Assembly (NCBI RefSeq): GCF_003334255.1
Contig: NZ_QOWU01000095.1
Reading direction: 5' to 3' (one strand)
DNA length: 7,641 bases
From: Escherichia coli
Lineage (GTDB): Bacteria > Pseudomonadota > Gammaproteobacteria > Enterobacterales > Enterobacteriaceae
Shown one piece after another: positions 1,071 through 1,442 of this stretch (positions are counted from its first letter, which is position 1; each line of letters opens with the position of its first letter). A model generated the notes under the pieces. It saw only the letters and a list, made by a program, of their open reading frames with translations. It did no database searches and had not been told where the DNA came from. The translations under genes were made by a program, and so were the position numbers.

Positions 1071-1442
1071 TCACTCTTCACTCTTCCGGCACTCGCGACA
1101 GATTATGTTTAGGCGACTGTCGTAGCGACGTATTTCTCCGTCAGGTAACGACCAGATAAGGTCCGGATCAACCACAACCGGTTTCTTCAGCTTTGCCCTC
1201 GATAATTTTTTGCGGGCATTTTGCCAGTCTTTACGAGCCTGTTCAGACGGGAATAACCCGTAGCCAGAATTGTATACATCGCCACTGGCAACCAGCTCTC
1301 TGGCCAGAACGCTCATCAGATATCTTGTTGCCCCAGTTTTAGCTTCCAGTTGTCGTAACGTCTCGCGCCCACTCTGGCGTACGAGTTCAAGAACCTGTCC
1401 TTTAATTTTTTCCCGCTCTTCTTGTGTAAAAACTTTTGCCAC
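1071..1442 (-). CDS. Hypothetical protein, 123 aa, GTG start; sits where a lambdoid P gene would, but is too short for a helicase loader
   Basis: ORF-track ORF. The start codon at 1442..1440 is GTG, 4 nt after AGGAGG (1452..1447). No internal ATG occurs before residue 43. Same strand and operon as the replication gene. Confidence 0.55.
   Translation of the reverse strand: MAKVFTQEEREKIKGQVLELVRQSGRETLRQLEAKTGATRYLMSVLARELVASGDVYNSGYGLFPSEQARKDWQNARKKLSRAKLKKPVVVDPDLIWSLPDGEIRRYDSRLNIICRECRKSEE

Follow-up and report, generated by a model that had tools for sequence, protein, structure and literature searches.

A common Escherichia coli prophage replication module whose initiator carries a DnaT-like C-terminal tail and is followed by no helicase-loader gene

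Organization of the replication module

We analyzed a stretch of 7,641 nucleotides (nt) from Escherichia coli (assembly GCF_003334255.1, contig NZ_QOWU01000095.1), referred to below, at its full length, as the window. The minus strand of the window carries, from approximately position 3324 down to 154, the early rightward operon of a lambdoid prophage, in which the cro and cII/YdaT genes and a replication initiator gene are followed by a series of small genes (Table 1). The initiator is the only replication protein encoded by the operon. The original prediction, made from the sequence alone, claimed that no recognisable helicase-loader gene comes after the initiator and that the next two open reading frames (ORFs) encode proteins of 123 and 118 amino acids (aa). 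The sizes and the order are as it described them, and the claim of a missing loader was borne out, with neither a family match nor a tblastn match in the window. The initiator itself ends in a short peptide that is common to the host protein DnaT and to YdaU of the Rac prophage, which allowed us to compare the module with other replication genes that carry this ending.

Table 1. Features of the window, ordered by position (bp, base pairs)
Feature	Position	Strand	Remarks
Two small ORFs closing the operon series	323-505 and 154-330	-	
Zinc-ribbon protein gene	599-1012	-	137 aa from GTG or 118 aa from ATG 955; phrog_1621
DUF977 / LygF / Ren-like gene, truncated	1071-1442	-	123 aa; PF06163, phrog_142
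GAAGAGT twice in tandem, 7-bp duplication	1073-1086	-	From alignment with 640R1; frameshifts the DUF977 gene and makes the stop at 1071-1073
Replication initiator ('phage replisome organizer')	1483-2559	-	358 aa from GTG 2559 or 356 aa from ATG 2553
Coding region of the DnaT-like tail …NNQRCVNHISEPDNEIPPGFRG-COOH	1486-1548	-	Tail common to E. coli DnaT and Rac YdaU
C-terminal domain core of the initiator	1549-1821	-	Residues ~247-337; predicted three-helix bundle and short helix
Three tandem 12-nt AT-rich repeats (TACAGATAAAGA-like)	2084-2119	-	Candidate DNA-unwinding element, directly downstream of the iterons
Five GTCACG iteron-like repeats	2119-2165	-	Presumed origin and initiator binding site, where the initiator gene codes for the linker
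N-terminal winged-helix (DnaD-N / replisome-organizer-like) domain	2179-2544	-	Presumed origin-binding
cII-like / YdaT-family activator	2625-3050	-	Upstream of the initiator in the same operon; phrog_163 E=9.4e-46; RefSeq 'toxin YdaT family protein'
Cro/DicC-like regulator	3034-3276	-	First gene of the rightward early operon; phrog_409 E=1.3e-29; RefSeq 'Cro/CI family transcriptional regulator'
cI/LexA-like repressor, 212-aa ORF	3368-4006	+	Divergent from the early operon

The initiator matches the family phrog_3729 'replication initiation protein' over nearly its whole length (E=6.9e-257; residues 3-358 against profile positions 1-356 of 356), and shares 99% identity with a cluster that comprises 5786 member sequences and bears the NCBI name 'phage replisome organizer'; the start at ATG 2553 is the one annotated in relatives. 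An AlphaFold2 (AF2) model supported by 100 homologues predicts a confident N-terminal winged-helix domain at residues ~10-127, a disordered linker of about 110 residues at ~133-236, and a helical C-terminal domain at ~245-330 that is highly confident, with a predicted local distance difference test score (pLDDT) of 96-98. Matches to the Phage_rep_org_N family are weak and stay below threshold (TIGR01714, 15.4 bits for a cutoff of 49.8; PF09681, E=0.25), and residues 130-358 match phrog_1701 'DnaD-like helicase loader' with E=1.2e-61. The core of the C-terminal domain is widespread among phage and plasmid initiators, being found in 4095 clusters at 50% identity (E<=1e-3). The Pfam matches of 100 aligned proteins with this core are to initiator-type and helix-turn-helix families, most commonly HTH_36, DUF1376, Phage_rep_O and DnaD_N, and no Pfam family for the core itself was found among them.

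An origin-like array lies within the initiator gene. The five GTCACG repeats start at 2119, 2129, 2140, 2150 and 2160, a spacing of 10-11 bp, and the hexamer occurs 11 times in the window for an expectation of 2.95, a count that none of 200 shuffled sequences reached. Phased direct repeats with an adjoining AT-rich region inside the initiator coding sequence are what would be predicted of a lambda-like iteron-type origin. Four further GTCACG copies are located at 2357-2425, in DNA that encodes the N-terminal domain.

Absence of a helicase-loader gene

No ORF of the window matched the DnaC-like, P-like or DnaT families in PHROGs, Pfam, NCBIfam, PADLOC or PDB sequences. This includes the 123-aa and 118-aa proteins, which the original prediction had singled out as places where loader homology might be detected; none was found in either with the same collections. 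Four loader proteins (E. coli DnaC, Rac YdaV, lambda P and the P-like protein of Rac-SA53) were also used as tblastn queries against the window, a 47.6-kilobase (kb) context from E. coli G1/2 comprising the whole prophage and its flanks, phage 640R1, and the complete 46.4-kb genome of phage Tritos. No hit in any of these targets was better than E=0.06, and positive controls in Rac and Rac-SA53 gave E=1e-81 to 1e-171. Taken by type, there is no lambda P-like loader (PF06992 / phrog_109) beside the initiator, with a tblastn control of E=1.6e-104, and no DnaC/IstB-like AAA+ loader (~245 aa; phrog_50, PF01695), for which neither the window nor its context gave a hit better than E=0.07, with Rac controls of 5e-81 and 2e-171 for the DnaC and YdaV queries.

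A loader gene just outside the window had been named beforehand as a finding that would overturn the original prediction, and none is present in the G1/2 context, in 640R1 or in the complete Tritos genome. Past window position 1, 640R1 and G1/2 continue with small hypothetical genes, hok, DUF968, rusA, Q, lysis and terminase, and no replication gene is among the annotated genes there in either. Neither the complete genome of Tritos (56 features) nor the G1/2 prophage as a whole has any other replication gene, as befits an initiator-only module. The gene order of cro, cII/YdaT, initiator and DUF977 with no loader before Q is also found in records deposited as phage genomes, the initiator being followed by DUF977 without a loader in phages 640R1, 813R8, Tritos, Evi, mEp460_ev081 and HannyBb.

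The DnaT-like C-terminal tail

The window initiator terminates in …HISEPDNEIPPGFRG followed by the stop codon, with the DnaT-type motif …[ST]xPDxxIPPGFRG-COOH at its extreme C-terminus. Over the last 20-25 residues, the tail (…SEPDNEIPPGFRG) aligns with E. coli DnaT residues 155-179 at 15 of 25 identical positions (pairwise BLASTP E=1e-7), and with the C-terminus of Rac YdaU, which precedes the DnaC-like YdaV, at 13 of 19 (E=8e-6). The tail also matches positions 156-179 of the NCBIfam DnaT model and the DnaT chains 6aep, 2ru8 and 9zbt in the PDB. Similarity to DnaT is confined to this segment: BLASTP aligns only the last 25 initiator residues, and the initiator scores 19.3 bits against the DnaT equivalog model NF002770 for a cutoff of 201, with only model positions 156-179 matched. 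The RAST-style name 'Primosomal protein I' given to relatives is owed to the tail alone, and the similarity between tail and DnaT was therefore implicitly known. In mEp460_ev081 the same tail ends an initiator whose N-terminus is of a different, O-like kind, and this initiator is also without a loader. Literature searches on the PPGFRG motif, on YdaU/YdaV function and on 'DnaT-like' in lambdoid phages returned nothing useful.

Homologues of the C-terminal domain core from other lineages (P0134, P0150, P0168, P0182, P0206, P0230, P0255 and P0259) lack IPPGFRG. Many such homologues end in similar short motifs, among them …IPDWLKD, …LPEWARG and …PVWA(K/R)G. From their sequences, these alternative endings may serve, each in its own lineage, as peptides that dock on the helicase-loading system present there.

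Genes downstream of tail-bearing initiators

Viral contigs were scanned for IPPGFRG directly before a stop, which yielded at least 120 loci, and all counts from the scan given here and below are among the 120 matches listed. In all 120 the motif is terminal, at the end of an initiator ORF and before a true stop, with ORFs mostly of 243-408 aa. Grouped at 80% identity, these initiators make up 19 clusters, and their N-termini are of at least seven unrelated kinds. A DnaC-like gene comes next in 65 loci, where its product is 47-52% identical to host DnaC and its start lies 2-6 nt past the initiator stop. In 40 loci the next gene is DUF977 at +40 nt, with no loader within 5 kb, and in the remaining 15 it is another non-loader gene or the contig ends. 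A P-like loader follows in none. The 55 loader-less loci are distributed across several initiator clusters. The statement of the original prediction that lambdoid initiators are 'normally' followed by a loader was too strong, given that ~45% of the tail-bearing initiators sampled do without one.

Presence of the loader gene varies even within an initiator cluster. Members of the same cluster with versus without a DnaC paralogue number 19 versus 9, 5 versus 11 and 1 versus 2 in three cases. The cluster of the window initiator is loader-less in 17 of 18 loci, with the zinc-ribbon gene next in the remaining locus, and the exact C-terminal domain and tail of the window precede a DnaC-like gene in loci L036 and L099. 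Relatives that combine the N-terminus of the window initiator with a P-like loader downstream have a C-terminal half of another kind, the PF17948 DnaT-like domain that binds single-stranded DNA (ssDNA), and the tail is absent from them. Judged by these sequences, the C-terminal half of the initiator and the type of loader appear to be exchanged as one unit. The PF17948 fusions (P0057, P0089, P0094 and P0098) keep the window-type N-terminal domain, including the iteron-encoded …VTH.SR.VTT… segment. When the loader genes were taken as the starting point, a tail-bearing initiator was found upstream in 77 of 78 YdaV loci versus 0 of 77 lambda-P loci, a contrast that is clean but phylogenetically shallow, as the relatives sampled in both sets are all 97-100% identical.

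The same arrangement can be seen in the host chromosome, where the distance from the dnaT stop to the dnaC start is 2 nt (E. coli K-12, L003 1239-2518). The phage pair of a tail-bearing initiator and a DnaC-like gene repeats this layout, with its 2-6 nt, in 65 contigs (L010-L129). Such a layout would fit an origin of dnaT-dnaC from a phage cassette that became domesticated.

These comparisons also bear on the second possibility raised by the original prediction, that the module is defective, having lost its loader and leaving a prophage that is unable to replicate autonomously. The element is indeed a prophage, the DUF977 gene has a private frameshift, and there are several pseudogenes elsewhere in the G1/2 copy of the prophage. 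Against this, the loader-less order recurs in many independent phage records and in the 55 loci of several clusters, the initiator ORF and the iteron array are both intact in the window, and no remnant of a loader gene is found between initiator and DUF977 in the loci listed, where the spacing is constant at 40 nt. We regard a defect as very unlikely, and as a general reading it is unsupported in view of the same order in deposited phages, the size of the initiator cluster and the origin-like array. Lacking a loader is the usual state of affairs for this class of replication module, which is large and very common among E. coli prophages.

The two small downstream genes

The 123-aa ORF is a DUF977 member (PF06163 E=1.5e-22; phrog_142 'Ren-like exclusion protein' E=1.1e-36) and is known as LygF to phage annotators. 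Its length is as the original prediction gave it, but is not the native length of the gene, which encodes 140 aa in relatives; compared with 640R1, the 7-bp duplication cuts the gene by a frameshift that takes off the last 17 residues. The segment that is lost from the window allele is the part in which the intact DUF977 C-terminus, NIICRECRKSEAMQRVLAFY, matches lambda Ren at its own C-terminus, NLVFKECRQSAAMKRVLAVY. Among 1088 complete E. coli genome records with a match to this stretch, none spans the duplication, which is therefore either private to the source or a sequencing error.

The zinc-binding-like motif that had been noted in the 118-aa protein is real, as the protein matches the Pfam family Zn_Ribbon_TF (E=3.4e-4) as well as phrog_1621 (E=3e-56), and its start at ATG 955 is the RefSeq start in a genome 99.9% identical to the window. 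The zinc-ribbon gene is absent from Tritos, mEp460_ev081 and HannyBb, all of which have the same pair of initiator and DUF977, and it is a variable accessory gene outside the replication core.

One could suppose that one of the two proteins, DUF977/LygF or the zinc-ribbon protein, stands in for P or DnaC as a helicase loader or adaptor of a new kind. DUF977 stands at its fixed distance past the initiator in all 40 loci that have it as the next gene, its N-terminus resembles a DNA-binding winged helix (phrog_2391), and in mosaic exchange it moves along with the end of the initiator gene that codes for the tail: the nucleotide similarity of HannyBb and mEp460_ev081 covers only window positions 1011-1545, that is, DUF977 and the last ~60 nt of the initiator. 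From this extent of similarity it follows that a mosaic boundary lies inside the initiator gene and that tail and DUF977 are carried across it jointly. However, DUF977 also lies after the loader region in Rac-SA53 and further downstream in 50 of the 65 loci with a DnaC-like gene, which puts it in the position of ren and leaves no role as a loader replacement. Its C-terminus is homologous to that of lambda Ren, whose gene sits after P, it has no match to any loader family, and the zinc-ribbon gene is missing from the three phages named above. A new loader among the two is the least probable of the explanations considered here, and as a candidate for that role DUF977 was rejected. Both small downstream genes are accessory and neither is a loader.

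Prophage context

The closest genome is that of E. coli G1/2, in which a prophage adjoining potC is 99.9% identical to the window. At least 80% of the window is found in 442 of 5426 complete E. coli genomes, and phage vB_EcoS-640R1 is 99.7% identical to it over positions 1-3400. In G1/2, RefSeq marks only a 339-nt 'LexA family protein' in the counterpart of the cI/LexA-like ORF (L002 23661-23999), corresponding to the C-terminal part of that ORF. A full-length DicF antisense small RNA is present at window positions 5174-5225 on the plus strand (Rfam RF00039, 76.7 bits for a gathering score of 48). It sits upstream of dicB in the leftward ydfA-ydfB-ydfC-dicB region, as in Qin/Rac-type prophages.

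Comparison with known replication modules

The module shares its general plan with lambda O-P. It too stands in the early rightward operon after cro and cII, its initiator consists of a predicted N-terminal DNA-binding domain, a flexible linker and a C-terminal half presumably for protein interaction, the initiator gene harbours the iterons together with an AT-rich stretch, and a Ren-like gene comes after the replication genes. Unlike lambda, the module has no P, and the initiator is not similar to O (best BLASTP E=0.04, in low-complexity linker). Its C-terminal half is of another type, with a DnaT-like tail that never occurs in the P-type modules sampled.

The ending …PD(S/N)xIPPGFRG-COOH is shared with YdaU and DnaT, and window-type tail-bearing initiators also occur with a DnaC-like gene 2-6 nt downstream, the spacing of dnaT-dnaC being 2 nt. 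The window differs from ydaU-ydaV of Rac and from dnaT-dnaC of the host in having no DnaC-like gene, and its N-terminal domain is replisome-organizer/DnaD-N-like, whereas YdaU has DUF1376 and DnaT its own N-terminal domain. With respect to the replisome organizer / DnaD family of Gram-positive phages, the C-terminal domain is not a Pfam-recognised DnaD/DnaB_2 domain and matches to the family models are below threshold. By sequence comparison, the module is placed outside the P, DnaC and DnaT families.

Several iteron plasmids replicate with Rep proteins that use host DnaB-DnaC, namely RepA of pSC101, pi of R6K and TrfA of RK2. The window module would be like them in having one element-encoded, origin-binding initiator and in relying on the helicase and loader of the host, although the protein families are unrelated to the window initiator. 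We know of no DnaT-type C-terminal docking peptide described for initiator-only plasmid or phage replicons. An 'initiator-solo' class of phage replication modules was reportedly defined by Weigel and Seitz in 2006. The type of module seen here is common and already catalogued.

A chromosomal parallel is DopC of Cellvibrionales and Oceanospirillales, which has an O-like N-terminus fused to the DnaT C-terminal motif (Brezellec et al. 2017, PMC5509034). The partner of DopC is the P-like DopE, and its gene is chromosomal, domesticated and free of iterons. The window initiator, in contrast, is a phage protein that has iterons but no partner gene. The same study had already likened pairs of initiator and loader genes to dnaT-dnaC (Brezellec et al. 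2017, PMC5509034).

Possible mechanism of helicase recruitment

We consider it likely, on the strength of sequence comparisons, that the window holds an initiator-only lambdoid module of intact type, in which the initiator recruits host DnaB-DnaC and host DnaC loads the helicase. In the manner of lambda O at ori-lambda, the N-terminal domain would bind the GTCACG repeats and open the AT-rich stretch. The C-terminal half, made up of the three-helix domain and the DnaT-type terminal peptide, would then bring host DnaB6-DnaC6 to the opened origin, so that loading could be left to host DnaC and a phage loader would not be needed. Related phages with an initiator of this kind optionally carry a DnaC paralogue, ~50% identical to host DnaC, 2-6 nt past the initiator stop. 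The pair is laid out like dnaT-dnaC, which suggests that the loader gene was added to a system that could use DnaC beforehand. Recruitment of host DnaB/DnaC through the C-terminal domain had been the other possibility offered by the original prediction, and it is the better one, indirectly supported by the DnaT tail and its pairing with a DnaC paralogue or with no loader, never with P.

More tentatively, the sequence pattern suggests the tail as a docking element for a DnaC-type system, because it is strictly paired with DnaC-type loaders or no loader and is grafted onto many initiators. Its widest form is that IPPGFRG-COOH could be a portable docking motif for enterobacterial DnaC or DnaB-DnaC, common to DnaT and many unrelated phage initiators, a possibility that we hold with considerable doubt.

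Several observations weigh against these proposals. An AF2 model of E. coli DnaC joined by a 30-residue Gly/Ser linker to a 36-residue tail left the tail undocked, with pLDDT 30-36. The chimera is a weak test, being a monomer with a shallow alignment (18 paired phage/host rows) and no DnaB, and for this reason the tail hypothesis stays a lead. The alignment of the C-terminal domain family with the DnaT three-helix domain by hhalign was collinear but non-significant (probability 12.8%), and homology of the two is not demonstrable. The published role of the tail in DnaT is only in the cooperativity of ssDNA binding (PMC4132743), loss of residues 154-179 doubling the dissociation constant for ssDNA and lowering the Hill coefficient (PMC4132743). 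Authors of the 2026 preprimosome structures, which were built from DnaT residues 84-153 with the tail 154-179 outside the models (PMC13377028), state that DnaB/DnaC recruitment by DnaT is still unexplained, which leaves room for a part played by the tail, and favour DnaT's N-terminal domain as the recruiter (PMC13377028). The association of tail and DnaC comes from closely related enterobacterial prophages, and may be due in part to neighbouring DNA staying linked when mosaics are exchanged, and not to function. Finally, the DUF977 gene of the window is itself frameshifted.

Another hypothesis for the role of the tail is mimicry of DnaT toward the restart primosome. The C-terminal domain and tail would act as an origin-tethered DnaT, engaging PriA and/or PriB or forming a filament on ssDNA through tail-mediated cooperativity, and DnaB would be loaded by a PriA-PriB-DnaT-type pathway and not by direct capture of DnaB-DnaC. 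DnaT is the sole host protein to which the initiator has a sequence link, its tail aids cooperative ssDNA binding, and the three-helix bundles align collinearly, if without significance. Relatives with the same N-terminus carry the bona fide DnaT-like domain PF17948, and the long acidic linker of the initiator loosely recalls, as a resemblance only, the PriB-binding acidic linker of DnaT. However, the PriA contact in the preprimosome structures is made by the unit of DnaT residues 84-153, with the tail outside the model, and the presence of the tail on several types of C-terminal domain fits a common external partner better than self-association. We find this route improbable, though less so than a defective module or a new loader. 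It would still end with host DnaB-DnaC, and is a variant of the recruitment mechanism set out above, not an alternative to loader independence.

For the window, both small genes can be put to one side, being accessory. The added value of the analysis is a specific, testable idea on the DnaT-type tail, the type of module itself being known. On the open question of how DnaT recruits DnaB-DnaC, the comparative pattern singles out a tail peptide of 7-13 residues (cf. NHISEPDNEIPPGFRG). If IPPGFRG-COOH is indeed a portable docking motif, it would be the missing link in the hand-over of DnaB-DnaC by DnaT to the restart site, dnaT-dnaC would be a domesticated phage cassette of an initiator C-terminal half and a DnaC-like loader, and phages that bear the tail could do without a loader of their own.

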